Source: Schmidtea polychroa (Eukaryota). Taken from it: a stretch of DNA of 64,000 bases. The notes under the pieces were generated by a model, which had not been told where the DNA came from, did no database searches, and saw nothing but the letters and a program-made list of their open reading frames with translations. This document shows positions 1 to 57,673 of this stretch, one piece after another. Within the stretch, counting starts at the first letter, position 1, and the number at the start of each line of letters is the position of its first letter. The DNA is taken from contig CM097886.1 of NCBI GenBank assembly GCA_044892525.1, forward strand, positions 66,340,001 through 66,404,000, in the 5' to 3' direction. The translations under genes were made by a program, and so were the position numbers.

Positions 1-60
1 AGTCGATCAATTACACATGTATGCGTCAGAGAAGACAGAGATATATGCATAGTAACAGAT

Positions 61-747
61 ATGACACAAGACCACAAATTCTTCTGGGGAGAGGTCAAAC
101 CAAATACCCCTACTGTGGTATGCGCAGGAACCCAAGGGATAGTAGCATGTAAAGGAACAAGAACTGCACCAAGAAAAGACAAACCAAGGAGTATGGCAAT
201 TAAACAAGGTCCACTGATGGAGATAACAACCAAGAAGCCAAATAAATCAGTTAGTACAAAAACAACAACAGAGCAAAACCAAACTGAAGTAACAACAACG
301 GCAACAGGGATCAATGAAGTGATTAAGGATGAAAGACGAGAAGTGCATGTAACTATCAACCTCAACAAGAAAGGAGAAGAGGTAATTACAGTCAAAAACC
401 AAGAAGGAGAACCAATCATAAGGATATGCGTAATGGCTAAGACGGGAATAATCGACTGTACAACAACACCGATAGACAAAGGTGTAGACGTCAAAATAGA
501 GACAAGGAAACGAAAAGAGCGATATCAGGTATGTATCCTTAAGAAAGGAAGAGGAACCAGCGTATGTCAACCAATAACTCGACAAAAATCCCAATTAATA
601 AACATACCATGGATACCCCGAGATCGAGAAGGGGGAGAGAAACGAGAAAATCACAGTCACCTAACAGAGAAGGAGAAGGAACGACTACATCAAGCTTTTA
701 AGAAAATCAAAGCACCAGAAACGAATACCACAGGTAGTATAATGTAG
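61..747 (+). CDS. Hypothetical 228-aa cargo protein (beta-rich middle, basic patches)
   Basis: Open 228-codon ORF with the same A-rich codon style as its neighbours. AG lies 2 nt before the ATG. No recognisable domain. Confidence 0.55.
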   Translation: MTQDHKFFWGEVKPNTPTVVCAGTQGIVACKGTRTAPRKDKPRSMAIKQGPLMEITTKKPNKSVSTKTTTEQNQTEVTTTATGINEVIKDERREVHVTINLNKKGEEVITVKNQEGEPIIRICVMAKTGIIDCTTTPIDKGVDVKIETRKRKERYQVCILKKGRGTSVCQPITRQKSQLINIPWIPRDREGGEKRENHSHLTEKEKERLHQAFKKIKAPETNTTGSIM

Positions 748-962
748 TATAATGTAGGTAGTATAATGTAGGTAGTATAATCGAACTAGCGGAGGAAGGA
801 CTAACAATAGAAATACGATAGACGGATAGAGGGAAATTGTAGATATTTTGTAAAAACGGTGTAAAGTAATTGTAAAGTTATTGTATAAAGTAAAATAACT
901 CACCAAAACCATAAAAATTAGAAAAAGAAAAAATGCAAAAGAAATGACGAAATTTATTATAG

Positions 963-2141
963 ATGACTAATCGAGAGAGACCGAATATCCGAAAGAAAAC
1001 GATCACAATGAGAGAGGGAGAGGACGATACGCCATCTAGAAAGAGAGTGAGAGATGCGGAAGTTAGCGAAACAAAACCAAGTGGTTTCGCGTATTATCGA
1101 AGGATGGGAAATGATTATAGTTTAGTACATGGAAATTTGAAGCAGGGGAGTAATGAGCAATTCAAATGTGAGAACCAGAGATACCTGTCATTTGAACACC
1201 AGACCATTTTCACCAAGGAACAGAGCCGAGCGCTAGCACTCAACGGATTTTTCTTCTCAGGAAAACCAGAAATACCCGATCAAGTAACGTGTCACTTCTG
1301 TAATGGGAAATTAGCAGAATGGAAAAAAGGAGAACACCCAAAGAAGGAACATCGTAAACGAATCCCAACTTGTCCATTCATAATGGGATTTGATGTACAC
1401 AACAAACCGGAAATAAAATACGAAGCCTTGGAGAAATTGAAAACCGAAGATGAAAAAGGAGGGAAAATGACCATCGCGATAACCAGAATCATTGATGAAT
1501 ATGTCCCAACTTGTGAAGGTGAATTTCTCACGCAAATAGCAGATAATAGAATGAGAACGTTCGGAGACGATACGAGAGGACCTGAACTAGCAATAAGAGG
1601 ATTCTATCTAACAGAAAAGCAAATACTCAAGTGTGAAAGATGCGAAAGCCAACAGAGATTACCGGAGGAAGGCATACCAGAAATTAGACATCAAGCATGG
1701 TGCCTATATCACAACGAACAAGAAACCGAATATCCAGAAGTGTTAGTAACAGAAGAAGAGGTTGACGAAGTTGTAGACAAACCCAACATGTGCAGAGCGT
1801 TGAAAGCAGCCGGAATAGGCACGACAAGAGCAAAGAAAATGGTTAACGAGAGACTACAGAAAAACGTACATATACCAACAACAACGTACGATATGATCAG
1901 AGCAATTACTCAATACAGAGAAAAACCTGAAACAAAAATAAAAGAAGAATCAATGGTCAAAGCAGCTATCTTACGAGATATCAAATGTACTATGTGTTGG
2001 GAGATGAGTGTAGAAGTTATTCATATGCCATGCGGACATTTGATCGCATGTGCCACGTGTAGTAGAAAAGTAAAGGAATGTCCTATGTGTAGACAGAGGA
2101 TTGCGCAGCGAATCAAAGGATTTCGCTACGCCGATCAATAA
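963..2141 (+). CDS. Inhibitor-of-apoptosis (IAP/BIRC-like) protein: BIR, degenerate BIR, UBA-like segment, C-terminal RING
   Basis: BIR1 has canonical C-x2-C-x16-H-x6-C (CHFC..H..C, with ALALNGFFF). BIR2 is degenerate (ELAIRGFY..CERC..H..C). RING is C3HC4 (CTMC..MPCGHLIACATC..CPMCR). ALKAAGIGTTRAKKMV resembles the IAP UBA domain. Intronless. Confidence 0.92.
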   Translation: MTNRERPNIRKKTITMREGEDDTPSRKRVRDAEVSETKPSGFAYYRRMGNDYSLVHGNLKQGSNEQFKCENQRYLSFEHQTIFTKEQSRALALNGFFFSGKPEIPDQVTCHFCNGKLAEWKKGEHPKKEHRKRIPTCPFIMGFDVHNKPEIKYEALEKLKTEDEKGGKMTIAITRIIDEYVPTCEGEFLTQIADNRMRTFGDDTRGPELAIRGFYLTEKQILKCERCESQQRLPEEGIPEIRHQAWCLYHNEQETEYPEVLVTEEEVDEVVDKPNMCRALKAAGIGTTRAKKMVNERLQKNVHIPTTTYDMIRAITQYREKPETKIKEESMVKAAILRDIKCTMCWEMSVEVIHMPCGHLIACATCSRKVKECPMCRQRIAQRIKGFRYADQ

Positions 2142-2223
2142 CAAAAATTAAAATACCGTGTATAAAGTGTAGATAATAAATGTATGAAATAACAGTGGTA
2201 GTAATGGTGTAATTATTTAGACA

Positions 2224-3822
2224 ATGAATAAAGAATCACAAACCTATGTGGAAACCGAGATGCAACAACTCGAACAGTACAAATCCATCATACAAGCCTA
2301 CGAAGCAGAAAGAGTAAAGAGAGAAATAGAAATGTACAAAACCATGTATGAGAAAAAGCAACAAGAGTTAGAAGTGGAGAAGGCGGAAGCACTAGCAACA
2401 AAAGAGAAGTGGATGAAACAGGTAGAGGAATTAACCGAGGATGTGAGAAATACCTCAACATACCAAGAATTGGAGGAAGAGCTCTCAAATTTGCGAACTC
2501 AGCGGATTATGGAGATAGTTGGGTTATGCGGAGAGATAATAATGCAAAAGGCACAAATTAGAGAAGCAAAGGAGCAATACGAAGAGGAACAGCGTAAAAC
2601 GGAACGAATATAACTACAAGCGCAACAATGGAAACGAAAATACGAAACACTCCAAACGAGGCAGAATGATAGCCACGAACATCAAATACGAAGCTACAAG
2701 GCAGAACTAGAAGAAGCAAAGGACAAATGCGCAATGATGAAAGAAAAATGGGAAAGATGCAAAAAGACCCTAAACGAAGTCAGAGGGCAGGGGAGGAGAA
2801 CACCGCACAAAGAACCCATCGTTAAAGATAACGTATTAGAGCGAATTAACACACAAATAAAAGCCCAAGCTCAGAAATGGAAGTATAAATATCTAGGAAG
2901 TCAAACTCAAGTGCTCTATTGGAAAATCAGTAGTAAGGAACTACTGAGATTACGAAAAGCAGACCAAGAATTTTACGAAACAAGGGCTACACAGCGAGAA
3001 GAAGAAGAAGTAGAGTGGAGAAAACGACATCAGAGATTGGAGAAAACCGAAAAGTGTCTCAAGCATCAAGTCCGAAAATGGAAAAAGAATTGGAAAGAAA
3101 CCAAAGAAGAATTAAGACAGCTGCCCATGAGACTGATGGAGAGAGACGACTTCAAAATGTGGGAAATGATAGAAAACCAAAAGGAGGAGATTAGCCGATT
3201 GAGTAGAGAACATAGAATCAAAACGCGGACCAGCGACGGTAGACAGAGAATCATAAAGAAACAGACCGGAGAGATAAGAAGGTATGAATACCAGGAAAAG
3301 AGATGGGAACAACAATTGACAGACCAAGATCGACAGATCCGACAATTACAAACAGAAGTGGAGGAAGCCAATCAAGAGATGAACGGATATAAAGGTATGT
3401 ACACCCAAAGGGATGTGAATTGGAAGCACCAGATTGAACTTAACGCGAAATGTAGAGAGGAGTGTGATAAGGCAATTCAACAAGCCAATCAGGAAACTGA
3501 AATAATAAAACGATGCTTCGAAGAAAATGAAGCAAATCTGAGGGCAGAAATCGAGAAACTAAAAGCGCTTGAAAGAACCCAATGATTGGAAGAGGAATTA
3601 GACGAAATGATAGAAAACGAAAGTAGATTAACGTTTTTGTTGGATGAAGAAATAAACATCTCAACGGAATTGCGGGAGGAAGTAGATCGGTTAAGGAGAC
3701 AACCACCAATATTATTAATGCCGCTCTACCCGTTCCCGTTGCAAGTGCCACAGCCTGCCGAAGTCACAACAGATGAAGGCTTCGAAGAAAATAACGAACC
3801 AAATAACGCAACGTGTATTTAG
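2224..3822 (+). pseudogene. Long coiled-coil cargo ORF interrupted by two in-frame stops (TAA 2611-2613, TGA 3583-3585)
   Basis: Track ORFs 2224-2613, 2734-3585 and 3586-3822 are all in one frame, and E/K/Q/R-rich heptad-like sequence continues across both stops. Confidence 0.7.
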
Positions 3823-3942
3823 TCGAGGAGAGATGTTGCCTGTAAATAAGAATGAAAAAAAAAACCAAATAAAAATGACAAAACCAAAAGATTCAAATAA
3901 AAAGAAGACGAAAGGAAATATGATGTGTATATTTTTGTAGAT

Positions 3943-4710
3943 ATGAATTATTTAAAAGAAAGAGAATCAACGAGTAACGAAAGAAAGTCAAATGACCAAC
4001 CTGAACAAAGCCAGAATACGATACCAATCAAACAAGAACCAATGAAATATGATAGTAATAAATGGAGAGTCAGCAAGAAGTTGTTCAAAACAGAAATTGC
4101 AAATAAAAATGTAGAGATTACGAGATTGAGACAGCATATTGTTCAATCAAGGCGATTAATAAACATTGTCAAGCAAGAAATTTTGAGGGAAATAAATGAA
4201 TCGAAACGAAAAGAGACGGAAAATAAAAACCTGAGACAGGAGATAGTGGAATTGAGAGCTCAGGCAGTAATCGAAGATTATTGGAAATCAGAAACAAGTA
4301 AGTTGAAGAAGATTGTAAATATCGATCAAGTTTATATCGAACAGTTAGAAGCACAATACGCTTATGCAAAAACGAGAATGCGAGAAAGTAAACGAGTCGA
4401 GAAGAGAAATGCAAAACTCAAGGAAGAGATCAAGGAACAAAGAGAGGAAACAGAAAAACAATGGAAGTTGAAAGAAAATTATCGGAGAATTTTATATCAA
4501 AAGCGACGAAGCATGCAAACACTGCAGACGACAATGACCATCAAACAAAGAAAATGGAAAAGTAAAGAGAGGTAATTACAAGAAATACCAGAATTAAAGA
4601 AACAGTTGGTGGCAACACAACTCGAAGTAATAAGAATGAACGAGTTGAGTAAAAGACGAGCACCTGAACCTCCCATAAAATTAAGGGATGAGGTCGGTGA
4701 CTCCCAATAA
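3943..4710 (+). pseudogene. Second coiled-coil cargo ORF with one in-frame TAA (4573-4575)
   Basis: ATG 3943 follows ATTTTTGTAG. The frame continues past 4575 (LQEIPELKKQLVATQLEV..) to TAA 4708-4710. Confidence 0.6.
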
Positions 4711-4786
4711 ATGAGACAAACTAACCGTGTAAATAAATTGTAAATAAAGCCAAGTAATTATTATTAAAGTATATGTATATGTAAAG

Positions 4787-5844
4787 ATGAGAAGCCTAAT
4801 TGTGGTGATGATTATAATGGCATTGCCAAGAACCCTGCAAGCAGAAGAATCAATGATCAGATGCCAAAAAGAATACCCATACCGAAGAGAAGATAGCACA
4901 TGCAGTAGCTTTAAATCAATCTGCGAAAAACCCAATGAGGAATGCGAACAAATCAAGTTGCAATGTTCGCAATGTCCACCAACCACTGAAAGTTCAACGG
5001 AAGTGCAAATAGCTCAGACAATAAAAACAATCTTGGAGCAAGAAATGAAAGTTATCAGAACCCAGATAGCAGCATTGGCTAAACAATGTCAAAGCCAGAA
5101 ATCAAAGAGAGAATCCCAAACAGATCCAGCCGCAACCCAAATGAGAATGATGATAAAAATTAAAAACGAAATGACAAAAACCTTGAAAGAAATGACAAAA
5201 GAAATCCTCACTACCATAAATAAAAATCCGATGAACTCCGAAAAGATAGAGGAAATAAAACAACAATTAATGACAGCCGCCAATGGACGTGCAAGTAATT
5301 GCAGAATGGTAGTGAAATCGCTAGAGGAAATGAAAGGAAAAAAAAACCCAGCATTAAAAATGAGGTGACGAAAACCTTAAAAGAAATGACAAGAGAAATC
5401 CTAACTATCATAAATAAAAACCCAATGAACTCCGAGAAGATGATTAAAACCTTAGAGGAAATAAAGAAAGTTGTCACCTCGGAAGAAAACAAATTCAACA
5501 AACCCGAAAAATCAGAAGTTGCGGATACAACCCAATTGGGAGAAATGATGAACAAACCCAAAGTATTAGAACCCAGAGAGTCCGAACCCCTCACAATATT
5601 GATCCTATTAGCGGCAAGCCTAATGATAAACATCACCATACTGAGTCTAATTGCACTCAAACCCATTCCCAGTAAAGAAAGAAACAGAACCCTGAAACTA
5701 AAAGAACAATCACGAAGTATTCGTATCCCAATGGAAGAACAGCTAGTCCAAACAACAAACCAACCAAGATACTTCAAATCTTCTCCAAACATTGAAACCA
5801 GAGCCGTCATCGAGACGAGATCCCGAACAACAGAATTCTACTAA
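4787..5844 (+). CDS. Secreted or type-I membrane protein encoded in two frames joined by a -1 shift at the A9 run 5338-5346
   Basis: N-terminal hydrophobic signal peptide, Cys cluster, KSKR dibasic site, duplicated helical repeat, then in the -1 frame a TM-like segment LTILILLAASLMINITILSLIAL and a short tail. Confidence 0.6.
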
Positions 5845-5917
5845 TATGACATTACGACAGTATAAACATTTTGTGACATTATAAAACATTATCAAACGAT
5901 TGCGAGTCTAAGACTAA

Positions 5918-5998
5918 GCAGGTGAGCTCTATTGCTAAAACTACTCCCCATTGTATTTTCTCTTCGGGTTCTAGACGGCCGATAGAAGGTCTTACGTC
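5918..5998 (-). other. Conserved family block (TGACGTAAG.CCTTCTATCGGC..ATGGGGAGTAGT..GCTCACCTGC), copy 1
   Basis: The reverse complement matches 57553-57637 in four co-linear blocks and 12733-12795 in two blocks. Confidence 0.8.
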
Positions 5999-6860
5999 AT
6001 TGATCATTTTCTATTTTTACTTTTCTATCTCATTCGGTTATGGTCTTCATTTCTAGTTGTTTTCTATTGTTTCCTTTCAAAATTTTGTGCAGGGATGCGC
6101 CCTCATTTTTCTATTAATAAAGGTTGCTAGGTATTTCTTTTGATATTTATGAATATTTAAACTATCTCGCAAAAAAAATTTGAGCATGGATCGGCCCTTA
6201 TTTTCCAGCTAATAATTATTGTTCTACACTTCCTACAATATCTAAATTATCCTTTGAAAAATTTGAGCAGGGATTGGCCCTTATTTCCAAGTTAATCCGC
6301 GCTTCCCATAATATTTAAATTGTACTTCAAAAAAATTTGAGCAGGGATCTGCCTGTATTCTCAGTCCTAACCTATGTTTGGCCAAAGTACTTCCAGCGAT
6401 AGGACCCGTGAGGAAGCCCCCACATTTCGGCCCAATCCAGCTGCGTGATTGAAGAACCTCATGTCCACCGGCTGAGCTCCCGAAGGCACCTCATGCCATG
6501 ACATGAAGTTCCTCAACTCCACGTTACTATCGTTCACAATCAACAAATAATATAATTGAACTCAATAAAAACTATTATTTCAAACTTGAAACTAAATGAA
6601 ATTAAACAATAATGAAAAAAAAACTAAACTAAATTGAATATAAAATTTATTTAACTTTAAACATTACCTAAAATTTCATATTAAAATAAAATTACCAGTC
6701 CAATCCACAAGGGCATAAAATCGAAAATTGAGAGCATATGTTCGTTACCTGACAAACGATTTGTTGTGTAAAACTGAAAACTAATTTAACAAGTTGAACA
6801 ACTGAAATTTCAATCCGTATTTATACTGATTGAATTGTACGCCTACGCATTCTCTGCTAC

Positions 6861-6881
6861 TATATCCAATTAGAATGCGAG
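6861..6881 (-). promoter_or_regulatory. Promoter-like motif CTCGCA..AATTGGATATA of module A
   Basis: Same motif as 54488-54516 (+) and 30302-30327 (+). About 0.7 kb inside the shared terminus. Confidence 0.4.
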
Positions 6882-7558
6882 GCAATTCTGGTTAATTTTT
6901 GCATGCATGCATGCATGTGTGCAATTATTGTTTTTTTTAATTTAATTAATTTAGTTAATCAAAATTCTAATTTTTATTAACTTTTAAGATTTATTTTTAT
7001 AAATTCTATAATCAAAATAGTTTTTTGCTAATTTTAATTTAGTTTTACAAGTTTTGTAATTTAAATAAGTTCAGTTAATTTTACTTTAGTTTCATTAATT
7101 TAAACAATTTGGTTTTATAAGTTGTATAATTTAAATAATTTTGTTGGTTTTATTTTTAGTTTTAGTTTTATAAATTTTATGGTTTATCTAATTTTACTAC
7201 TTTCTTTCTACATTTTTTATTATTTCTCCAGTTTACTAGATAATTTATTTTAAATTTTAAATTTATTTATTTAGAAATTTCCCATATTATTAATTAATTC
7301 ATTACCCATTATTTTATTTATTATTATTTTAATTTTTAGTTGTTAGATATTCCGAATGCGATGTTTCTCCTAATTGTGTTAGTGATTGCGACCTTTATTT
7401 TCGTTCCTTTATTTTATCACCCGGGTCTTATTTATCATCAATGTGTTATGTACTTTAATTTGTATTGATTGGTGTTTTGATTTAACTTGGTGCGATTTTT
7501 ATGTTATGTATTTTTGATTCATTAAAACAAGCTCTCGATTCTCGGTTCTAGCCCAACA

Positions 7559-9113
7559 TAACCATCGACCACCAATTAATAAAATAATCCGAACTATTTA
7601 ACATATATCCTTAATTTAGGTTACCTTCAAAATTATAGTTGAAAAATTTGTCATCAAAGACCCCCAATAAACCATATCGTCATCAACTACCACCTAAATA
7701 TGCTAAATTGGCTTATCAGAATATATATTTAACTTATTTTATATTCAAAAATATAAATTGTAAATTTTCATGAATGACCCCCTCAACTTCATATAGTCAT
7801 TAATCACTACCTAAATATATTAAATTGGCTTATCAGAATATATATTCAACTTATTTTATATTTAAAAATGTAAATTGAAAATTTTTATGAATGACCCCCT
7901 TACAAACCATATAATCATCAACTACCACCTAAATATACTAAATTAGCTTATCTTAATATATATTTAACTTATATTATATTTAAAACTATAAATTGTACAT
8001 TTTCATAAATGACCCCCCTCAGACCATATAGTCATTAAGGATTACCCAAAAGTACTAATTTAATTTGTTTTCAGATATGTTCAACTTATATTACCTTTAA
8101 AAATATAACTTGTATTTTTATTTAACCGACCCCCCTCAAATCATGTAGCCATTAACTATTACGTAGGTATACTGAATTATATTATATTCATAGACAGTTA
8201 AATTATATTTCATTTAAAAATATAAATTCATAAATTTTTGTAAATTCCCCCTCCCCCCATATGTGGTAATCTTATACAAATATAAATTTATATTNNNNNN
8301 NNNNNNNNNNNNNNNNNNNNNNNNNNNNNNNNNNNNNNNNNNNNNNNNNNNNNNNNNNNNNNNNNNNNNNNNNNNNNNNNNNNNNNNNNNNNNNNNNNNN
8401 NNNNNNNNNNNNNNNNNNNNNNNNNNNNNNNNNNNNNNNNNNNNNNNNNNNNNNNNNNNNNNTATCACTCTCATTATTATTATTACTATTATCATTATTA
8501 TTATTATTATATTATTAAAATAATTATCTTTATTTCATGAAAATAAAATTATAAAACAAATTATTGATTTTGGAATTCCCCTATCTCTAAATTTAGTTTC
8601 AATGGCCCTATCTTCCAATAAAATTACGGAAAATCACTAATATCTATTTTTAGTAACATCCCCCCTTGAAACGACATCAACTATTATTAATTTAAATTAT
8701 ATCCATATATGTATATGTGTGTGGGTGTATATGTATATATATGTGGATGTGTGTATGTATATATAGATTTAGAAAATAACAAATACCATAATCTTCCCCC
8801 TCAAGACCCCTTTAAAGTAATAAAAATAGAATAATTTATAAAAATTATGGACAAAATTATGGACAAAATTATGTTCAAACTAAATCAAAAGACAAAACTC
8901 AATTGTAAACTAAATTTATTAATTCCAATCACCAAATTTATTTACATCATTGTCTCTTTGAATCATATTCATACCAAAAAGTCCTTCGAGCTCAGTTGAT
9001 GGACCATCCCGATGAAATACATTTCCTGGGGTTGGAAAATGGAAAACTTATATTAAAATATCTTTCAGAATTTCTTTTAGATTTCCACAATTAAATAATT
9101 CCAAATTATTTCT
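7559..9113 (+). repeat. Left arm of a ~1.5 kb inverted repeat, with five ~117-bp tandem subunits and an (ATT)n tract (gap)
   Basis: Near-identical reverse complement of 14876-16387. GACCCCC recurs at 7659, 7776, 7893, 8011 and 8128. Confidence 0.9.
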
Positions 9114-10420
9114 ATATAAACTACTATAAACTATAACCTATGTCAATTATAAAATATAAATCATGAATAGTGCTATATAAATAGTGAATGTATCCAATCC
9201 TTAAATACTTGTATATAAATTTATAAATTGTAAATAGTCATGTATAAATTATAAATGTATCGGGGTTATAAAATATAAGTTATAAATAATTATATAAAAA
9301 AAATTTTTTTTGATTATAAAATATAAAGTATAGATGGTTGCACCTAACTTATACATGTATCTTGATGCTCGAAAATAGAACCCATAATTAGCTATAGATA
9401 AATTCTGTCTACGAAATAGTAATTCTAAATAATTATATAAAATTTTTGATTACAAAATATAAAGTATAAATGATTGAATATAAATTATACATATATCTTG
9501 ATTTTATAAAAATAAACTATATATAAATTACAAAATTATATATAAATTTTGATCATAAAATATAAAGTATAAAATGGTTATATATAGAGGTTGAGTATAA
9601 AATATAAATAGTTATATACATATGTAACTTGTAAATATAGAACTAAATCATAACTGGCTATATATCAATTTTGATCGAAAACTATGAAGTATAAACAGCT
9701 ATATATAAATTGAGTATAGATCTTAATTAGTAAAATGCGAATTAGAGATAACCATTTGTAAAGTATAGAAACATAATTCATGAACCATACCTAAAGTATA
9801 AACTAGAATTCATATTAACTACCCAGGTTCCGAACGTAACCTGCCCAATTTGTAAAGTCTAATATCAGTCACCTCCAGAGATATGATCCTATGCCAAGGA
9901 TATGAAATATGAATTTTCGTTAAATTATAAATTCTAAATGCATACAAATTAAACTAAGAAATATAATTCGTATTAGTATTATCATTATTGTTATTATTAT
10001 TACTGTCAGTATTATCACTATTATTACCCTTNNNNNNNNNNNNNNNNNNNNNNNNNNNNNNNNNNNNNNNNNNNNNNNNNNNNNNNNNNNNNNNNNNNNN
10101 NNNNNNNNNNNNNNNNNNNNNNNNNNNNNNNNNNNNNNNNNNNNNNNNNNNNNNNNNNNNNNNNNNNNNNNNNNNNNNNNNNNNNNNNNNNNNNNNNNNN
10201 NNNNNNNNNNNNNNNNNNNNNNNNNNNNNNNNNNNNNNNNNNNNNNNNNNNNNNNNNNNNNNNNNAAAATCCAAATTTGATTGAATAATCGATTTAGGAT
10301 TTCCCCTCACAACTAAATTTAGAACCTACCCTTTTGCCCCAATAAGAATGATCATAATTCCTAAAGTCTATTTTTAGTAACACCCCCCCCTCGGAGAAAA
10401 TGCTAGGACTATTAATTAAA
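9114..10420 (+). repeat. Older diverged copy of the same repeat family (AT-rich tandem units, ATT tract, core)
   Basis: TTTTGATyAyAAAATATAAAGTATA-like units at 9.3-9.7 kb. The 10290-10420 segment resembles 8570-8700. Confidence 0.5.
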
Positions 10421-11417
10421 TAAGAACATGGGTGGATACATCTATATAGATATGTGTGTAAACGTGGGTAACTATACGTATATAATAAGTTAATTTAACC
10501 CAAGCTTGTCAGTGACGGATACATCTTAGTTAACTTAGCGGCCCCAGAAATTAAAAGCCATGTAAAGCCTACATTGTTGACTTAAACTAATTCATCGAGA
10601 ACACTAGGAATGCATTGAGACAGCCGATACCAACTATTGAACTCCACGGAATCAACTGCATGAATTATCGATAAATGACAAAAGTACATCTTACTTAAAA
10701 TTAAAAGCGTTATCAAAAGGGAATACTAAATTAAATTATTCAACAACATTTCTAACATAATTAGATACAAATCAAACTAAAGATACCAACACAGAGTCAT
10801 AAAAAATTCCTTAAAGGCTTTGAACAATCGGCCATTCCGTCCGAGTGAAAGATTTCCACCAAATATATCTAAAATCGAAAAGTTATTATTGATAAATAAA
10901 GTACTTACAAGTTAATCAAAGGGGATTACACCACTCATGACGAGCACAACCGAGGGATAAGTAAGTAAAATGAGGAGCTAGGCTCGTCAATGATACTTAT
11001 CGCCCCAGTGTACCCGAATTTAGTGGTAAATTACTAACAGGATCCGATTTCCTAAATTCGAAGAAAAAGTAAAGTATTAAATTTTGAATTACCAGCTAGT
11101 GGTAAACAAGATTTTGAAAATTTAAATGATTGAATTAAACAAAGTTAATTAAATTTAGGATATATTTAGTTAAAGTATGAGATTTACAAAAACTTTACTC
11201 AGGACTATTGAATTTTTTTTAAAAATAATTTCGGAAATCCAGGTTGTAATTGCAGTCGTTTTTTATTACTTCATTAAATTTCTTTTTAACTAAGATACAA
11301 CTATCAAAAATTTTAACTGTGAACGCAAGATTTTAATTATGAACTCCGTTGTCCGAGTCCCTTAAAGACTCATATCAGTCTGTGCCAAATGACCTAAATT
11401 AGATTTGCATTATAGAA

Positions 11418-11783
11418 ATGTCTCACTCCGGCGACTCAAACGGTGATGAAGCCTACAATCAAATGATCACGCGGCTCCGGACCCGGTACATCTGGTATCG
11501 GATACACGATTGGAACCGGGGGTTGGACCTCGATAATTACGGTCCGGTCATCCGAAGTGGCCCAGAGCCCGATGCCCCGGCGTGGGTGAAAATAGAGCCC
11601 ACCAACAACGTGTTATGGGAAGCCCGCGATCGAGCGGCCGACGAAGTAGTAGAGGCCCAGAAGCGGCTGAGGAGATTCGAGCTCCAGCTCAAAGCCGAAA
11701 TAATGGGAGTAACTCCTGAAGAGCTGGAGGAGACAGATGCCCCTCCACGAAAACGGGGAAGGCCCCGTAAGAACCCGGCCTAA
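11418..11783 (+). CDS. 121-aa protein with a C-terminal AT-hook (RKRGRPRK)
   Basis: GC-rich ORF in an AT-rich background, TTATAG 2 nt before the ATG, canonical RGRP AT-hook core flanked by basic residues. Confidence 0.65.
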   Translation: MSHSGDSNGDEAYNQMITRLRTRYIWYRIHDWNRGLDLDNYGPVIRSGPEPDAPAWVKIEPTNNVLWEARDRAADEVVEAQKRLRRFELQLKAEIMGVTPEELEETDAPPRKRGRPRKNPA

Positions 11784-12104
11784 CTTATCGATAGTAACAA
11801 TTCGGGCGAACTATTTAATCTAATTAGTGATACTGTGTGGTGTTTGACTTTTTGTTTTTGTAACAACTATGACGAACTGTAGCAATTTTTATTATTAAAA
11901 CTTTTACATCATAGTTGGTCGTGCGTATTCATAATATAATAAATCATCTTTGTCATTATATAGAAGTCTTATTGCGTATGGGGTGTCCCCAGGGACGGGA
12001 TGACCCACCCCCTTACTCTTCAGTTACTACTTTTATGAAAATAATCGAATTACCTTTATGCACATGGAAACGAGCGACGAAATTTTCATTATTGTTTTTC
12101 TTCA

Positions 12105-12578
12105 GTGTACAAGCTACTTGAAAATCTACGAAAAGACCGTGAACAGGCCCAGCAACAATCCGAGGACCTTCGAAGTCGAGTCGAGAAGCTCAAAATCAAG
12201 TGCCGAGAACTCGAAGGCACTTGGTTCAGTCCGGCTGAGATGAAGAAACGGACAACACACATCTCACAACTCCAGATCCAGGCGGGGCAAGATCAACTCG
12301 AAATCCGAGCGTTGAAGCTACAAGTACGCTCGCTCGAGAGCAAACTGAATGAAAAATTCATCCAGGACGCCCTCCAAGAGCAGATTCGTCCCCTTCCGGT
12401 GGAGCTAGCCAAGATATACCCACCTGCCCAGGCAAGCAAGCCGAAACGTAAGCGGCTAGGGCGGAATACCCGGGAAAAATTGAAGAGGGTCTGGCTGGCC
12501 GAGCAAGAAAAATCGAAAGAGCCTGCAGTCACTTCACGATCCCGAGGAACGTTTGAGAGTGTAATCCCTCCTGAGTAA
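12105..12578 (+). CDS. Coiled-coil/basic protein of an unrecognised family (LEGTWFSPAEMK); 5' end probably spliced
   Basis: Motif shared with 56491-57218. A strong acceptor TTTTTCTTCAG ends at 12105. Confidence 0.7.
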   Translation: MYKLLENLRKDREQAQQQSEDLRSRVEKLKIKCRELEGTWFSPAEMKKRTTHISQLQIQAGQDQLEIRALKLQVRSLESKLNEKFIQDALQEQIRPLPVELAKIYPPAQASKPKRKRLGRNTREKLKRVWLAEQEKSKEPAVTSRSRGTFESVIPPE

Positions 12579-12704
12579 AACATACCTTGTAATATAGTAA
12601 TGATTAAATAAATGATTCTTGTTGTCTAATGCATATGTGATCAAACTTTGTGATGGTCCAGAACCAGACGGTCGGCAGAAAGGCGTTTGGGGAAACAATC
12701 TCGA

Positions 12705-13325
12705 TAAGGGACCGAAATAAATCGGACACGTGCCTTCTATCGGCGTCCGTGAACCCATGGAGTACTCGACAATTATAGTGCCTTGAGGCGCTCACTTTTT
12801 GCGAGTACTCAACCCCTTGGTACAGTACCAACGTTGATTGCTCAACGGGTACCAAGAGGAAAACAATGTTGTATTCTGGGTTACGCTGGTAACAGCACCT
12901 AAACATTCAACCACCTGTAACCCACCAATATTGACATATCCATGTACTAAGTTCAAGTGTTTGGGAAAACAATTTGCTCGTTCTTGAATGCATATCACTT
13001 TATATCAGCTTTTACTCTCTCCTTTATATCTATTCTCGGGTTCTTTCACCAATTAAATTTTCAAATCCCGGCTGAGCCCCCAAATTTGTATGGTGGGTTA
13101 CTGATGATCAAATATTTTGCTCTTTAGTGCTGTTACCAGCGTAACCCAAGATACAACATTGTTTACCGCTTGATACCCGTTGAATGATCAACGTTGGTTC
13201 TGTATCAAGAGGGTGAGTGCTCGCAAAAAGTGAGCGCACTACTTGCACTGTAATTGTCGAGCACTCTACTGGGTTCACGGACTATCGTTTGAAGATATAT
13301 GTCCGATTTACGCAGGTCCCTTATT
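12705..13325. repeat. Imperfect inverted repeat, ~220-bp arms around a ~160-bp spacer
   Basis: Perfect complementary blocks 12877-12898/13127-13148 (22 bp) and 12788-12805/13220-13237 (18 bp), with co-linear partial matches out to ~12705/13325. Confidence 0.9.
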
Positions 13326-14126
13326 ATAATTACTTTCTCAACTATGCCTATACAAACTTTCTATCCTCAAACGATCATAAGTCATCAGGAATCATACATT
13401 AATCTATTAAAACCTGTTCATACAATACCACATCTAAAATGTTTGAATATAAATTAAGTGAAACATAGCCATAGTTTATTAAACATACCTTAAGAAAATT
13501 TTGAGGATAATGAATTTAATTAGAACACAATCAAAAAAAAAACAACTTATATATTGGTGAACATACAAATAAGGGTCAGAAATTTCATCAACCACAACAA
13601 CCAAATGTAATAACTTTACAAGAACCATGATTGTTTATGACCGCGTATTATTTGACTAAGCGTATTTCGCGGTGACTATGATTGTCCTAGTTGACCTACA
13701 ATGACACTCACCTTTGTTGAGCCCGGGTAGTTATAGAGATATGGTTAGATCAACAATCAAAATCTCACAATACATTTTTGTTAATATTATATTTTTAATT
13801 CAAGTTAAATAAATTCAAAATACATCAATAACTGTTACAAAACAATTCCCTATATAATTTTAAGAGATACTTCTAGAAAATTCAAATTGACTCAAACTTT
13901 ATTTTTTAAAAATTTGTTTTCTATTAATAATAGATTTTTTCTAGAATTTTAAGAAAATTTTAATTCAAAATTTATAATAATATTAAATTAATTTTACAAT
14001 ACTCGTTGCTTACATTTTAAACAAAACTTATACGTCAGTTTGAAGTATTTTAAACTTGTTTTAACTAATTATTTTTTAACAAACCATTTTTTTTTATTAT
14101 ATATTATTAATTAGTGATATTTTGCA

Positions 14127-14793
14127 ATGAAAATTTTATCAGTTTTTTTTTTCTAATCAATGTTCACTATGTAATGTCAGCTACAGTTAATGAAAATAAT
14201 TGCGAAGGTATTTGGCACTTATTTTTATTATATTTAAAAATTGTTCAGTTTGTGTGAAGTTTGTGAGACGCCTGAAAGATAGTCTAGATGGAGATGAAAG
14301 TACAAATATCGAAAATATTGAAAATAAATTCAAAGAGATGAGCAAAACAAGTAAAGGAAAAGAATAAAGTCTTGTAAGGTATTATAACTGATTAATATAA
14401 AATTGTAATTTATTTTTAGTGTTATTATATTGGAGGATTGGTAACATCTACTACATATATTGTAAAACATTTGTCTCAGCCTTTGAGTTGGGTTATGCCC
14501 GCTGAAAAAGTCTGAAAAACTAAAAGCAATGGATTCACAAATTTGTGAATTAAAATATGGTATGTTCAGTTAAGATTTTAAATATTAATTCAACTATTTT
14601 TCAGACAAACCTATTGATCTTACTGGTATTAATCTAAACAAAGCTCGCGTTAAAGATCTCAACAAATATTAGAAAGCTGGGGTGAAGAATGTAAAGGTTG
14701 TACAGAAAAAACTGATTTTATCCGATTAATAAATGAAAAATGCCCATTTATGATCCTAAAGCAGCCAAGCAAAGAAATAAAGCCGATTTGTAG
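14127..14793 (+). pseudogene. MANF: MANF/CDNF (ARMET) homolog, 4 exons (14127-14207, 14249-14373, 14420-14559, 14605-14793), with an in-frame TAA and four apparent frameshifts
   Basis: [45 protein letters not shown] and C-terminal ADL. GT-AG introns of 41, 46 and 45 bp. TAA at 14365-14367. Confidence 0.85.
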
Positions 14794-14875: not shown

Positions 14876-15546
14876 AGAAATAATTTGGAATTATTTAATT
14901 GTGGAAATCTAAAAGAAATTCTGAAAGATATTTTAATATAAGTTTTCCATTTTCCAACCCCAGGAAATGTATTTCATCGGGATGGTCCATCAACTGAGCT
15001 CGAAGGACTTTTTGGTATGAATATGATTCAAAGAGACAATGATGTAAATAAATTTGGTGATTGGAATTAATAAATTTAGTTTACAATTGAGTTTTGTCTT
15101 TTGATTTAGTTTGAACATAATTTTGTCCATAATTTTGTCCATAATTTTTATAAATTATTCTATTTTTATTACTTTAAAGGGGTCTTGAGGGGGAAGATTA
15201 TGGTATTTGTTATTTTCTAAATCTATATATACATACACACATCCACATATATATACATATACACCCACACACATATACATATATGGATATAATTTAAATT
15301 AATAATAGTTGATGTCGTTTCAAGGGGGGGATGTTACTAAAAATAGATATTAGTGATTTTCCGTAATTTTATTGGAAGATAGGGCCATTGAAACTAAATT
15401 TAGAGATAGGGGAATCCCAAAATCAATAATTTGTTTTATAATTTTATTTTCATGAAATAAAGATAATTATTTTAATAATATAATAATAATAATAATGATA
15501 ATAGTAATAATAATAATGAGAGTGATAATGTTACTGGTAACAATAC

Positions 15547-15620
<74 letters not shown>

Positions 15621-16387
15621 TTAATAACGATAATAATAATAAATATAAATTTATATTTGTATAAGATTACCACATATGGGGGGGGGGGGGGGAGGGGTCA
15701 TTTACGAAAATTTATGAATTTATATTTTTAAATGAAATATAATTTAACTGTCTATGAATATAATATAATTCAGTATACCTACGTAATAGTTAATGGCTAC
15801 ATGATTTGAGGGGGGTCGGTTAAATAAAAATACAAGTTATATTTTTAAAGGTAATATAAGTTGAACATATCTGAAAACAAATTAAATTAGTACTTTTGGG
15901 TAATCCTTAATGACTATATGGTCTGAGGGGGGTCATTTATGAAAATGTACAATTTATAGTTTTAAATATAATATAAGTTAAATATATATTAAGATAAGCT
16001 AATTTAGTATATTTAGGTGGTAGTTGATGACTATATGGTTTGTAGGGGGGTCATTCATAAAAATTTTCAATTTACATTTTTAAATATAAAATAAGTTGAA
16101 TATATATTCTGATAAGCCAATTTAATATATTTTGGTAGTGATTAATGACTATATGAAGTTGAGGGGGGTCATTCATGAAAATTTACAATTTATATTTTTG
16201 AATATAAAATAAGTTAAATATATATTCTGATAAGCCAATTTAGCATATTTAGGTGGTAGTTGATGACGATATGGTTTATTGGGGGTCTTTGATGACAAAT
16301 TTTCAACTATAATTTTGAAGGTAACCTAAATTAAGGATATGTGTTAAATAGTCCGGATTATTGTATTAATTGGTGGTCGATGGTTAT
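14876..16387 (-). repeat. Right arm of the ~1.5 kb inverted repeat, including an (AAT)n microsatellite ~15465-15640
   Basis: Reverse complement of 7558-9113. Related GGGGGTCAT subunits continue slightly beyond 16387. Confidence 0.9.
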
Positions 16388-17599
16388 ATGAATTAAAAGG
16401 GGGTCATGAAATTAAGAAATTATGCTTTCAAAGGAACTACAATTTAACCCTATATAAATGCGATATAATCTAATATTCTCAAGCAATCATTGACGATTTA
16501 AGTTATAATTTACAATGTAGGTAATTTATACTGCACAATTTATACTTGAAGAAGGCTTTTAATTTATACTCGATATATAGATTAAAGTTGCGATTTATCA
16601 TTTATAAGATCATTGTAAATTTTCATAAATACTCGCGTTCCTAATCCACATTTGAGGGACAAATTGGGTGGGTACGTAGTACTATTAATTCCGAAGTTAT
16701 AATTGGCAATTTGATACATTATAATTTAAGCAGAAAGAGGATATACGGTTCCGGTTCTTGGTCGTAATATAAATTTATCCTTAATGATTTATATAGCTTA
16801 GGTTTCTGGCTGTAGAAGAAATTTCTAAATAAATTCCTTTCATGATTGGCGATGTTAGGTATTTATACCTAATATAGAATTAGGTTTGACTCATTTTTCA
16901 ATGCTATCTTTCATTTTGTAGCCGATAAATATTTATTGATAACGATTTACAGTATATGGGACGATTTTTAATGCCAAATTAACACCATTTGATGATTGAT
17001 AATATGAGGGGTTAATTTTCTACACCCAGACTTTACATTTCAAGATTGACTTGGGCTTTAGTGATCTATATTTTAACCACGAGGTAAAGCTATATGACGG
17101 TTATTGAGGATTTTATAATTAATTAGGCTTATTCCGCATGTCGAACTTCTTTATGATATTATTATGATTAGTTACGAGAAAATCATTATGCTGTTACTAA
17201 AATTTTATCTACAAATGACATTCGACAAGCGTATAAGTAAAGTTGTTTTTAACTGACTACATTACTCAAATTGCGATTGTTGTGTTTAATTTAGGTCTGA
17301 GATCTACTCGATTAAACTTCTAGTGTGACTTAGTGTACCGAATTTTTAATGGTGATTTTAATTGTGTAATGCATTCATAGTCTGGAAGAATGCTTGCTTA
17401 CACGGCCCCACTGTGACCGCTACGACAAGCCCTACTGTAGTGTTGAGTCGAAACATCGCTGTCGACCGATAAATAATTATATGGAGCCATAGCGGAGGGG
17501 TTTTATCGACACAACTCCATGGTAGAACCATGAAGTGGCCGACCTCCGATGACCGAACAAAAAAATATATATAAAGGATATTGCATGTCTGCATGTGAA

Positions 17600-18549
17600 A
17601 TGATGATTTGAGGTGAATTTTATAAACGATCGAATGTAGGACTGATCAGAGACGCAGATGTATCAATACGCCGCTGATCCTTCTTACATTAGATAAAAAT
17701 AATAAGCAGGATTTGATCTAGACATAATTAATATTACCAATAACAATCAAAGTCAAATTATAATCAATAATATCATTAAACTTTAAAAATTCAAATAACA
17801 ATACTCACTATCAATGTGACCTTCAAGTTTTTCGCAACAAAAATTTGGCATAAAAAAGTGATTACTTGTGACTAGAATGCGTCGGTATATATACCTATTT
17901 TGTACACGTGTATGTATTGATGCATTAAAACAAACTCGAATTCTTTTTATTCCAGAATTTTCTATTTCGTGATTTTGATATTTTTAATGGCAATTTTAGT
18001 GCTATAATTTTTGTTTTTATTTTTAAATTTTTATTCTTTAATTATTTTTTCATTAATTTTACGTCCATGATGGATTTGGAACGGTTCCAGAACATTCTAT
18101 TTTATTTTTAATACAATTTTCATTTTAACTGCTGTTTTATAAATTTCTTTTTAAGATTTTTTATTTTTAATACTAATTTATTTATTTTCTCTAACTTTTG
18201 TTGTTCTAGATGGCCGTTGTGATGGTCGTCGCCATTTTATGGAATGTTCTGGGTTTTTCTGGAATCTTTTTACTGTTTTTATCGTCTTTTAAGTTATTCG
18301 AGTTTGCTTTTTGTAGTTCTATGTTTATTTGGTTATTTTTGAGTTAGGTTTTGCATAACTTCTTGCTTTTGTATAATTTTATTTACTTTGTGGGTTTATT
18401 ATTTTTGTTGTTTTCTCCTTTAATTACCATTGTTTATTTGGTGTAGGTTTTAATATTTAACTATACTTGGTGCTTTTTTACTTGCTGTGTACTTACACAT
18501 TTCAGTCACAATTAGTATTTTGGGTCTAGAAATCAGTTCTAGCCCAACA
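17600..18549 (-). mobile_element. Module D: LTR-like end of the same family
   Basis: GTTCTAGCCCAACA at 18536-18549 is identical to 7545-7558. T-rich tract, then TATATATACCTATTTT (17886-17901) ~0.65 kb inside, as in module A. Confidence 0.55.
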
Positions 18550-21427: not shown

Positions 21428-22924
21428 TCAAAGGCTGATCGTTTTGAAGACGTTCATACCATCCAATGCAGTACTCAACAGCAACCCTGGGATTTGTGGA
21501 TGCCAATGGAGCTCTTTGATTTCCTTCTGTCCCATGTGATTAAACAGCAGATGAACGGGGAATTCCTCTGAGCCCTGCAACTCCCCGGCATCTTGCTCCA
21601 TACTGATATCCCACAGTGTCAATTGATCATCGTCAGAACTGCACGCAAACACATATTGGGATTGAGGGCACCATTCGATAGATGTGATTGGATAATCCCT
21701 GTGATACTAATAACCAACCGTAAACCCGGTATAATTTACAACAAATCAACTCACGTCATACAAATGTGTATAAGCTGGCTGTGTTGTGCTCTTGAACATT
21801 CGTAAATCCCACACTTTCACAATGCCATCATCTCCTCCCGATACGAGGGAGAAAGCACAATTCTTTGACCAAGATATTACATTGACATCCTTGGTATGAG
21901 CGTCTGCCATCGTTACGTGGTGCTTCATGTCTCGGGCGTCCCAAACAAGAATGCTTCTGTCACTGGAACAACTGATAAGAATATTATCTTGATTCGGAGA
22001 CCACTGAATGTCTTCTACTGAAGAAGTGTGTTTGGATAGCGGTTGATTGATAACCTCAAATCCGTGCTCCTTTGCCTGGGTTACATAGATTTTACCATCA
22101 TTATCGCCTGTAGCTAATTGTCCAATTTTACAATTAGACCAATCCATTGCATATCCTTCTGTTGAATGATTTCGAATGGTATAAATAGGCTTGATTAGTT
22201 CATTTCGACCCATATAATCTGCCATGTATGCACTATCATTAACAGCCCATAATTGATTTTTTAAATCCCATATGTGAACCTAAACAATATTGAAACAAAC
22301 TTCATAAATGTATTGCTCATTACCTGCCCAAGATCTGACCATGAAGCTGCTACAGGATTATTGATCTGTTGGGTTCTGACCCGATTAACTCCACCATTGT
22401 GCAAGATATTAACGTGTGTTAATTACCTTTCATCATCTAAAAATTCATCTTCACTTTCTTCTTCTGATTCTTCATCACTTTCGGTATTTTCCTAATTGAA
22501 TGAACAGTGAAAATTATTATGTTAAATTTCATATTAACTTTTTGTTTTAATTTTTGCAAATTACTCATTTTCATAACAGTCAAAATATTGCTATGGCCTG
22601 CTGCATCTTCGCGGCCAGATATTGAATAAACTGTGTATGGGAATTTTTCAGATCTTTCTTCTCCGGTACCCAAGTTATCATTTATAATATCGAAACTTAA
22701 GCACGAGTGATCAAGTTTTAGCCTATGATGCAAAACATATGCAGATTCATCCATTTCTAACTCAGTATCATCATCGATTTTGTGTGTTTTGGGATTAAAA
22801 ACTTCTGATTCTATTTTAAGTATTTAGTAATTAAAGTAATTTACAAATTTCTACCTTGTTCGTTATCATCTAGTTCCATTTGTTCATTTTCACTTTCAAT
22901 CATTGCAACATTATCATCACTCAT
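21428..22924 (-). CDS. GRWD1: Glutamate-rich WD40 protein GRWD1/Rrb1, 5 exons (22855-22924, 22539-22810, 22324-22491, 21755-22279, 21428-21706), one in-frame TAA at 22423-22425
   Basis: [17 protein letters not shown], acidic tract, [51 protein letters not shown]. Introns of 44, 47, 44 and 48 bp. 438 codons in total. Confidence 0.93.
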
Positions 22925-23767
22925 GGTAAAAATTTAAAAAAATAAGAATATTAAAACAATATAACATTTAAACCTTTTACCTTTAATTTAATAATTTTTA
23001 AATTAATATTTGTAGGATTACAGATCAAAACAATTTATAAGGTAAACGATTAATTTTTATATATGTTATTCAAATAAATACTTAAATAATTTAAAATAAG
23101 TATTTCATTTAATTTTCAAACTGAAGAAAGTTTGATATTTAAAATAATATTGTTTACAATATGTAAATACAATTTAAATCAAGCACTCAATTATTGCACT
23201 TTCATTATTCTTTCCATGTATGAAATAGTGAGTTAAAATTTCGCCTTAGACTTAAATTTTAATTATTAATTATCGTATCCCTACACTCTCACAAAATACA
23301 TTTCCATTTGCGTTGATCATGTGCAGAACCTCTAAGAATCTTGAACTAGGGTAAACAGTGTTGACGCGACTACTTAACTTAATGTTCCCACAGGCTGGTG
23401 AAGACCAGTAGAAGATTTCTGTATTGTATAGTCCATATTTATACCTTGGCCTAAGAAAATACCTGTTTAATTCAAATGAATTTAATCAAAAATTTTTATC
23501 TGGTGAAAACTATCAAAGATGTTTGTTGTTCAAAAACTGCGAAAAATCCCGTTGTTTATCCAGCGCAATATCTCAGCATCAGAAAACGATAAAAAATACA
23601 CAAAAAATAGGCCAAGAATCAGAAAAATTAGGAAGTGTAGGGCTAGATAGTGCGAGTAAAGACGGATTATTTTGAAATTTTAATTAAACTTTTGTAATGT
23701 ATTAAGCTCCTAAATATTAATTTGGAAAGTTAAAACTGCGTTCAATTTTCCCAACAATGAATAAAAT

Positions 23768-28844: not shown

Positions 28845-29900
28845 AAACTATGGACAGACCACAAACCAATAACGTTTATGTTGAAGACCAAGAAGCCAAT
28901 CACACCTCACTTTCAAACATGAATCATCCAATTAAGTGTTCTGAACATTGAAATGGAATAATGTAAAGGTGAAACGCATTCTAATGCAGATGCGCTATCG
29001 AGAACTGAATGTGAATTGTGCATACAATGTCAAACGATTCATGAGAAACCAAAAACAAAGATCTAGCACTCATGTGTCAAGAAGATGGAAAACTGTGGCA
29101 GCAAGATTCTAAAGAACTACAAAGTAAGAAAAGAGATATTCTAATTTTGAAAGAAACAAAATTTTTAGAAAGTAATGACATTATTCATTCAAGCAAAGAT
29201 AAAATATGGATTCCAAACGAAAGAAAAGAAGAATTTGTATTGTCCACTCATAAAAATTTGTGTCATGCTGGGGTAAAAAAGTTCATGAATATATTTCTAG
29301 GAAATTTGACATCAGAAACAGACAGAAATTTATTAAAGAAGTAGTCGGATCGTGCAAAATTTCTCAAAAAAGAAAGGCTTTGACTACACGAACAGCAGTT
29401 AACCATTTAAACCAACAGAATTTTATTTATTAAAATCAATTTTCATTGACTTTTCTGGCCCAATGAAAACTGCCAGTAGAAAGAAGTATATTTTGGTAAT
29501 TATAGACCAATCTAGTATATAAATTTCTTGATATGCAGTTTCTGAGCAAAATGAAAAGACAGTTGCAACAATTTTTAACGAAAAATGGATTTTGAAATTT
29601 GGTGTGCCAAGGAGTATTCATTGTGATACAGGGAAAGCATTTAAGTCAACTTTATTAAATGCATTTGCAGAGAAACATGGGATTTATTTAGTATATTCAA
29701 GTCAGTATCATCATTAAGCTAATGATAAAATTGAACTCCAATTTAGAATTATTAAAGATGCTATCCAAATTTCCTTAAATGAAAGAACGGACAAAGACTG
29801 GGTCAAAATACTTCCTTAAATTTGAATTTATTTTGAATGGGACAATTCAGAAAACTACTCATTTGAGTCCTGCACAAATTGTTTTTGGGGTAGGAATGGA
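28845..29900 (+). mobile_element. Ty3/gypsy pol remnant (RNase H end plus integrase), with stops and frameshifts
   Basis: HSNADALSR, THKNLCHAGVKK (HHCC region), IDFSGP, WILKFGVPRSIHCDTGKAF, HLSPAQIVFG. Confidence 0.88.
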
Positions 29901-29999
29901 AATTAGAAGGATTTCCACTACTAACATCGAAAAATAACTTAAAGATATCAATTATAGCCAAAAAACTGGAAAATTAAGTTAAAATGGAGAAATCCATCA

Positions 30000-54482: not shown

Positions 54483-54517
54483 ATTGGCTCGCATAAAAAC
54501 AAAATTAGGTATATAAG
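54483..54517 (+). promoter_or_regulatory. Inverted CCAAT box and TATA box (TATATAAG) of module C
   Basis: ATTGG at 54483-54487 and TATATAAG at 54510-54517. Motif conserved in modules A, D and E. Confidence 0.45.
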
Positions 54518-57552: not shown

Positions 57553-57673
57553 TGACGTAAGTCCTTCTATCGGCAGTCGAGTATTTGTTAAGTCGAGTTA
57601 CGATGGGGGAGTAGTCCTAAGGCAGGGGCTCACCTGCTCCATCAGAGCTCGCCGACATGGCACAGTACCAACA
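57553..57673 (+). other. Conserved family block, copy 3
   Basis: TGACGTAAG.CCTTCTATCGGC, ATGGGGGAGTAGT, GCTCACCTGC and TGGCACAGTACCAAC. Matches 5918-5998 (-) and 12733-12832 (+). Confidence 0.8.

Follow-up and report, generated by a model that had tools for sequence, protein, structure and literature searches.

Two reading frames of a planarian genome encode members of one protein family that is real and old and that appears to be transposon-borne. The copies, named B and C after the modules that hold them, very probably represent two deep lineages of an accessory gene that lies near the end of large GLT2-type planarian transposons and is read from spliced RNA. Their product is tentatively viewed as a nuclear regulator that the element encodes and that binds RNA, its likeness to Tat and Rev being one of analogy only.

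The window, meaning the whole 64,000-nucleotide stretch of Schmidtea polychroa DNA that was analysed, is AT-rich (GC 0.304) and contains intron-bearing host genes and many repeats. Four related modules lie within it:

1-7558: module A
10267-13341: module B
16388-18549: module D
54149-58999: module C

Two Diverged Copies of One Gene

The family gene and its parts are placed as follows:

11418-11783, plus strand: AT-hook-tailed ORF upstream of B, 121 aa, with ATG directly after an AG acceptor
12105-12578, plus strand: copy B, a subfamily I frame of 157 codons that opens behind an AG splice acceptor and lacks a starting ATG
12210-12245, plus strand: motif LEGTWFSPAEMK of B, the turn between predicted helices 2-37 and 43-93
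12438-12488, plus strand: basic motif of B, 5 R and 5 K in 17 residues, extending into a separate predicted helix
56491-57078, plus strand: copy C, subfamily II, 195 aa, with ATG directly after an AG acceptor
56608-56643, plus strand: motif LEGTYFSPAQMK of C, the turn between predicted helices 6-42 and 47-106
56992-57036, plus strand: basic motif of C, mostly ahead of the frame break, 7 R and 3 K in 17 residues
57039-57218, plus strand: second open frame of C, 59 codons, with the acidic-aromatic DFFDLDEIF at 57165-57191

A preliminary description of this DNA reported the motif LEGT[WY]FSPA[EQ]MK twice, 44 kb apart, and it is indeed encoded at 12210-12245 and 56608-56643. The two proteins align with 24/72 identities (E 7e-8) and are reciprocal best matches among the 1365 six-frame segments of the window, with E 4-6e-5 by blastp (next best 0.18 and 0.58) and E 2-4e-6 by phmmer over the same 1365 segments. 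Identity by codon position is 0.49/0.46/0.28 over 65 core codons; because the third positions are near background (0.28), conservation is at the protein level, as had been proposed.

The frame at 12105-12578 is a family member, but probably not a complete gene by itself. It has no ATG at 12105 and is preceded instead by an AG acceptor at 12103-12104, and for these two reasons B is read as an exon whose start codon probably lies in an upstream exon. The neighbouring ORF at 11418-11783 has the same orientation as B and ends in RKRGRPRK, which resembles an AT-hook but stays below the Pfam AT_hook cut-off (E 0.18).

Copy C had been described as an ORF spanning 56491-57218. Both of its parts are open, but one frame stops at 57078 and DFFDLDEIF sits in the second, at 57039-57218, which is the probable continuation of C. 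The second basic motif that was said to appear after repair of a 1-nt frameshift matches the family in either reading, and most of it is already upstream of the break. Against eight relatives, its mean BLOSUM score over 12 positions is 22.9 for C and 15.8 for B, figures that stand without a matched null. Over the 12 positions past the break the means are -0.6 vs 0.2, which does not separate the two readings, and the null of this comparison covers post-break columns only. Coding-like GC that continues up to 57218 (0.49, then 0.30) and a PP-x-aromatic-DL motif common to 2/10 relatives favour the second frame as an old continuation. The case is weakened by stop-free frames in 1842/20000 shuffles (9%) and by the end of the unshifted frame, where SKPKGKRL resembles SKPKRKRL of B (19/21 bases).

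Relatives and Transposon Origin

Run against 1.84 billion representative sequences, a profile made from B and C gives 11 matches, ten of them motif-bearing relatives; P0014 was added by a later search. The eleventh match, P0009, is a YDG-repeat protein that matches only the last 39 profile positions and was rejected. A word-indexed search with B alone finds no relatives among 52 candidates. When the window is searched with a profile built from the ten database relatives alone, C is recovered at E 1.4e-27 and B at E 2.4e-20, with 2/1365 segments matched and nothing else below E 1. The profile search that the preliminary description had suggested as a check therefore recovers a diverged family outside the window, with core identity of 12-83% among the first ten relatives.

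In a tree of 13 proteins, B, P0003, and P0012 separate from C and nine others with support 100/100. The two window copies are therefore distant lineages and not a local duplicate. P0003 is a stand-alone 157-aa protein, 48% identical to B over 97 residues. Of the 11 relatives, nine are fused, at either end, to nine different unrelated host domains (SNF, CRAL-TRIO, GDC-P, actin, L21, subtilase, tyrosine phosphatase, calponin homology, and ABC). Fusion to nine unrelated domains means that the relatives are read as transposon exons that appear to have been joined into host gene models. Whatever its mechanism, the family accounts for a number of chimeric gene models and offers a protein by which a poorly described class of repeats can be recognised.

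The family matches no known one in the collections searched. Its module reaches no curated Pfam or NCBIfam cut-off, the Pfam matches of B and C being generic coiled coils below cut-off, and no gag, capsid, retrotrans_gag, CCHC zinc-knuckle, or ORF1 match is found in Pfam or among PDB sequences. A phage collection holds no match. In the ESM Atlas, P0003 falls among generic coiled-coil clusters (best 0.95, 157 shared features) with no common family, and P0006 scores 0.82 or less. The literature searched describes neither the family protein nor its exact motifs, and Repbase or other papers may describe the ORF. Across Pfam, NCBIfam, PDB, Rfam, and the literature, neither the family nor the RNA-like hairpin discussed below was found.

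By eye, a relative can also be read in a named transposon. The probes given in Table S1 of PMC8532177 include one against GLT2, a transposon of Schmidtea mediterranea, for which the paper names Repbase as its source. On the reverse strand of this probe (400/485 nt, by eye) an AG acceptor is followed by TG, as in B and in the same phase, and the frame fits the subfamily I pattern gap-free, with 14/39 residues identical to B and 15/39 to P0012 by hand count. The core pattern consists of the residues common to B, P0003, and P0012, and the probe was compared with it by eye, with no alignment program. The chance of the pattern is 2e-7 to 2e-6 in 30 rows of 400 nt, for a pattern written after the probe was seen. 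Because of this relative, GLT2 likely encodes a homologous ORF and a transposon origin of the family is likely. The available passages of PMC8532177 do not describe the GLT2 protein or element class, and the Repbase entry may annotate the ORF. The same passages report GLT2 RNA by FISH in neural tissue of smedwi-2(RNAi) animals, and GLT2 is in use as a neuronal marker for the loss of PIWI.

A separate probe in that table, named GLT, has on its reverse strand aromatic-RI-x-D and WE...VV-x-A spots that resemble, by eye, the ORF at 11418-11783. It is a weak lead that GLT-type elements may carry both the family gene and the AT-hook ORF.

The preliminary description regarded the proteins as element-encoded and outside known gag and host families, and the absence of any Pfam or NCBIfam assignment at cut-off, the nine unrelated fusion partners, and the GLT2 relative bear this out. 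The relatives do come from protein sets with host domains, and B is intact amid captured-looking host sequence, as might be expected of a host gene family or of domesticated genes that do not move. Such an origin is nevertheless very improbable, given that the fusion partners all differ, that a relative is present in a transposon probe (GLT2, PMC8532177), and that C lies between a repeated terminus and a repeated block.

Architecture of the Protein

The layout common to the members puts the motif at the turn of a predicted helical hairpin, which is followed by a linker and an Arg/Lys-rich helix; some members add an acidic-aromatic tail. In the predicted models of B and C, a long helix, a turn of 4-5 residues at the motif, and a second long helix are followed by a low-confidence linker and a separate basic helix. 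Model B has a pLDDT of 80.7 and pTM of 0.38, and model C 70.6 and 0.45, from 12-13 sequences; the helical hairpin itself is mostly at pLDDT 77-95 in these single-chain models. The motif had been placed inside a predicted coiled coil, and the region is helical in both models, with the motif forming the turn of the hairpin. This turn region is the best conserved part of the family.

The basic 17-mer contains 7-11 R/K in 12/13 proteins, with up to 11 arginines, the exception being a protein that is cut short. Its register is fixed as P-x-basic-N/A-x-R, and B (5 R) and C (7 R) are less Arg-rich than most relatives. A nuclear role would fit this conserved motif. An export-signal-like pattern C-terminal to the basic motif is present in 2/13 proteins (P0005 and P0006), and no leucine-rich export pattern follows the motif in B, C, or the second frame of C. 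Pfam REV is weakly matched by 2/12 members (best E 0.00072), with P0010 missing the cut-off at 19.1 vs 22 bits and the window copies unmatched; a weak REV match is expected for any Arg-rich stretch.

Known structures give the predicted fold no specific counterpart. The PDB sequence search returns only two designed peptides (E 0.5-0.8) that share an FSPEE turn, Foldseek at E 0.001 matches neither model to a PDB entry and finds nothing for B in BFVD, and VIA-align returns many unrelated antiparallel hairpins at Z 9-11, none prominent. A coiled coil with a basic segment is also the build of LINE ORF1 and of the hepatitis delta antigen, and the oligomer-prone helical hairpin and basic helix predicted here could belong to a structural nucleic-acid chaperone, a nucleocapsid-like protein that coats element RNA nonspecifically. 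The lack of any gag, capsid, zinc-knuckle, or ORF1 family match, the lack of a specific fold match in PDB or BFVD, and the organization of the gene as a small stand-alone spliced unit make such a protein quite unlikely.

An acidic-aromatic tail, once likened to an activation domain, is found in the second frame of C, P0005, and P0006, but subfamily I (B and its two closest relatives, P0003 and P0012) ends without it. The reading of the protein as a transactivator arises because of this tail, which half of the window pair does not have.

Element Ends and the LTR Question

The repeated signals and the candidate promoter around the genes are placed as follows:

963-2141, plus strand: BIR-RING (IAP) ORF in the A-rich gene cluster of module A
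5978-7558, minus strand: end of module A, with its terminus at 7558 and block at 5978-5999
12733-12744, plus strand: CCTTCTATCGGC block of B, 155 nt past the stop of B
18537-18549, minus strand: TGTTGGGCTAGAA terminus of module D, the third copy
54149-54161, plus strand: module C terminus, TGTTGGGCTAGAA, leading into an A-rich tract
54508-54560, plus strand: candidate promoter facing gene C, with a TATA-like box, a donor-like GTAAAC, and GCATTCTA
57553-57574, plus strand: TGACGTAAG and CCTTCTATCGGC block of C, ~345 nt past 57218

The TGTTGGGCTAGAA terminus occurs three times in the window (54149 plus, 7558 minus, and 18549 minus) where 0.001 is expected. Each copy is followed by an A-rich tract and then, 400-680 nt inward, by GCATTCTA, a placement reached in 25-43/5000 shuffles for each copy with a motif that was picked by eye. 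The CCTTCTATCGGC block also occurs three times (0.04 expected) and is immediately preceded by TGACGTAAG in modules A and C. Module C has the order terminus, TATA-like box, gene, and block, and the proposal that the gene is expressed from a terminal promoter is plausible for C. It does not extend to B, whose upstream side enters an N gap and resembles no terminus (similarity z at most 1.7). The claim that the genes lie inside LTR-like modules divides in the same manner, with C placed between its TGTTGGGCTAGAA terminus at 54149 and its block, and B followed by a block but running into the N gap upstream.

The word LTR is used here as a label only, because neither a matching target-site duplication nor a TGG primer site outside the three termini was found. 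No gag or pol is present in the 21/37 long ORFs scanned, no polypurine tract was found either, and the modules are partial owing to the window edge and the N gap. A solo LTR of 4.85 kb might run from TGTTGGG at 54149 to CCCAACA at 58999, but the flanks mismatch. A 13-bp perfect inverted match, ATCGTGTTGGGTA, joins 53386-53398 to 58991-59003, and another TGTTGGG start, likewise accompanied by an A-rich tract, lies at 53390; a related end may therefore enclose module C. GC-rich, strongly folding windows are found ~0.8-1.1 kb inside each terminus, at 6440-6560 (minus), 17480-17600 (minus), and 54940-55120 (plus), with z of -5.3, -3.9, and -3.4 and no sequence similarity among them.

The block is the place where a DNA-level transactivator would act: the basic motif would bind DNA or only import the protein, and the acidic tail would activate a promoter at the block. 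The tails of C, P0005, and P0006, the TGACGTAAG directly ahead of the block in A and C, and the AT-hook-like end of the neighbouring ORF are in keeping with such an activator. The TGACGTAA element, which we take to be CRE-like, is absent from the block of B, however, and no DNA-binding family is reached at cut-off. In bZIP proteins the basic region directly precedes the leucine zipper; here the order is reversed, with the basic motif well after the coiled coil, and bZIP_1 is matched by 1/12 members at E 0.036. With B, P0003, and P0012 also ending without the tail, an activator of this kind is improbable.

A Bulged Hairpin Beside the Gene

Past the block, the DNA on the gene strand can fold as a bulged RNA-like hairpin:

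12687-13341, no strand assigned: inverted repeat of module B, arms ~79% identical, with a second hairpin copy at 13169-13209 on the minus strand
12816-12856, plus strand: hairpin of B, an 8-bp stem, the 8-nt bulge AGTACCAA, a 6-bp stem, and a 4-nt loop
57656-57696, plus strand: hairpin of C, its bulge again AGTACCAA, its stems differing from those of B by compensatory changes

The hairpin lies 83-93 nt past the block in B, in the inverted arm of B, and in C, its bulge reading AG(T/A)ACCAA, and it starts 240-440 nt beyond the stop codon of the family gene. The order of gene, block, and hairpin is common to B and C. All 42/42 cells of the alignment are paired and 7/14 pairs are changed on both sides across the three copies, a level of covariation reached by 1/500 shuffles; slid controls pair at 26-43%. 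Three copies make up the alignment, two of which belong to a single inverted repeat, and the same three served to derive the structure. Folding is stronger on the gene strand (z -4.9, -4.5, -2.5) than on the other (-3.1, -2.3, -0.2).

The hairpin model finds no further copy within the window. Rfam matches neither 12680-12950 nor 57450-57800 at E values up to 10 and gives nothing at cut-off across the window, and hammerhead or Penelope-type ends, which were considered, were not found by Rfam. In B as in C, a poly(A)-like hexamer follows the stop and precedes the hairpin, which may therefore be missing from the mRNA. The preliminary description did not mention this covarying hairpin, which speaks for RNA as the target no less than for DNA.

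Module A contains no family gene between its terminus and block and no hairpin (z +1.4), and module D has no block, family gene, or hairpin in the 2.2 kb that is present. The database relatives carry no genomic context, and linkage of the gene to terminus, block, and hairpin is known from this window alone.

The separability of gene and block in module A would suit an accessory protein directed at the host, in which the helical hairpin binds a host coiled-coil partner such as a chromatin, silencing, or apoptosis factor. The high conservation of the hairpin turn and the host-directed IAP gene of module A, which has its like in published descriptions of Burro elements, agree with this. Such a protein is unlikely, and equally so is its corollary that the basic motif serves as a nuclear or nucleolar signal only while the RNA hairpin has a separate job. 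Gene and RNA hairpin occur together in B and C and are both absent in A, a pattern of three modules only, and the fixed P-x-basic-N/A-x-R register appears to exceed what plain import would need.

Proposed Role and Known Systems

A Tat/Rev-like loop is suggested because an oligomer-prone hairpin and an Arg-rich helix are combined with a bulged RNA stem adjoining the gene. A promoter inside the terminus would yield a spliced mRNA, and the protein would oligomerise through its helical hairpin and enter the nucleus by means of the basic motif. In read-through element RNA, the same motif would bind the bulged hairpin that lies 240-440 nt beyond the stop codon of the gene, and the bound protein might then promote elongation, 3' processing, or export of the element RNA. 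The acidic-aromatic tail of subfamily II could contact a host factor. Counting against this RNA-binding regulator are the missing export signal in B and C and the persistence of the block in module A without gene or hairpin. The lack of both gene and hairpin in module D, the lower arginine content of B and C, the small number of hairpin copies, and the poly(A)-like hexamer ahead of the hairpin count against it as well.

Complex retroviruses are characterised by feedback switches made of a protein and an RNA, and the invertebrate precedent found, CERV, is unrelated in build. That planarian giant transposons independently evolved a switch like Tat/TAR or Rev/RRE is a doubtful proposition. Such a switch would comprise an old, diversified helical-hairpin Arg-rich family with each gene beside its own covarying bulged hairpin, and it would control element RNA in somatic cells where elements wake after PIWI loss. 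If true, it would add another case of independent origin, one whose candidate RNA target adjoins the gene and which planarians would allow to be tested directly.

HIV Tat-TAR pairs an Arg-rich motif with a bulged stem-loop RNA. Unlike it, the family has no Cys-rich core, the bulge is 8 nt, and the hairpin is downstream of the gene. With Rev, Rex, Rem, and Rec, as portrayed in sections of PMC5568270, the family shares an Arg-rich motif and would also share a small spliced product, predicted coiled-coil helices, and a candidate structured RNA near the element end. Unlike those proteins, it has no homology beyond the Arg-rich stretch, a ~95-residue hairpin domain apart from the basic helix, and window copies without an export signal after the basic motif. 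Membership among the Rev-like proteins fails on homology and export signal, and the resemblance is analogy only.

Regulators encoded by invertebrate and plant LTR elements are already known, as with CERV, or proposed, as with TRP28. By its description in parts of PMC10309623, CERV of the C. elegans element Cer1 is likewise a nuclear regulator of an invertebrate LTR element, made from spliced RNA and containing a helix-hairpin-helix domain. It differs in being large, in sharing exons with gag, and in having two globular domains and a Cys loop, and it is reported there to have no homologues outside nematodes. The TRP28 antisense ORFs of plant Retand elements, in the text seen of PMC11963269, are extra ORFs near the 3' LTR that run opposite to the main genes and are proposed regulators. 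As with TRP28, the family gene faces the A-rich gene strand of module A; the domain and kingdom of TRP28 differ.

Closer to planarians are the giant gypsy-like LTR elements Burro and GYPSM1, which in excerpts of PMC6431247 and PMC13465017 carry accessory ORFs and a BIR-RING gene, as does module A, and are large elements in an AT-rich genome, like the modules here. Unlike them, these modules have no gag, pol, or env found, and the likeness is by description, not sequence. The excerpts name no protein like the B/C family. A Burro-encoded IAP is reported to help planarian stem cells.

Genomic Setting

The gene cluster of module A runs toward its block from the opposite strand. It occupies 1-5844 (plus), is A-rich (AT skew 0.42) and intronless, and comprises an unknown ORF, the BIR-RING IAP, stop-broken coiled-coil ORFs, and an ORF that looks like a signal-peptide/transmembrane protein. 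An AG acceptor before several of its ATGs suggests splicing to a common leader. The best matches of the IAP are mollusc IAPs. Adjoining the block of module A, four diverged GAGCAGGGAT-like units lie at 6060-6360.

The host genes include the following:

~21500-22930: intron-bearing WD40 gene

A GRB2-like host gene, read by eye, spans 32170-52460 (plus) with very large repeat-filled introns, and module C starts 1.7 kb past its end. A decayed gypsy-like integrase region, recognised by eye only, lies at 28900-29990 (plus). Direct duplications are found at 43372-45568 and 46412-48608 (100%) and at 37877-38724 and 45565-46412 (99.9%), and are either recent insertions or an assembly artefact.

An inverted repeat of ~1.5 kb, 7558-9113 and 14876-16387, is 97-99% identical between its arms and contains 117-118 bp tandem units. 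It encloses module B and a broken MANF-like gene at ~14100-14790 (named by eye), and looks like a foldback element with cargo. The termini at 7558 and 18549 lie at, or at most 5 bp from, the outer edge of long inverted repeats (7558; 18555-18841/20508-20750), a position that possibly reflects target preference.
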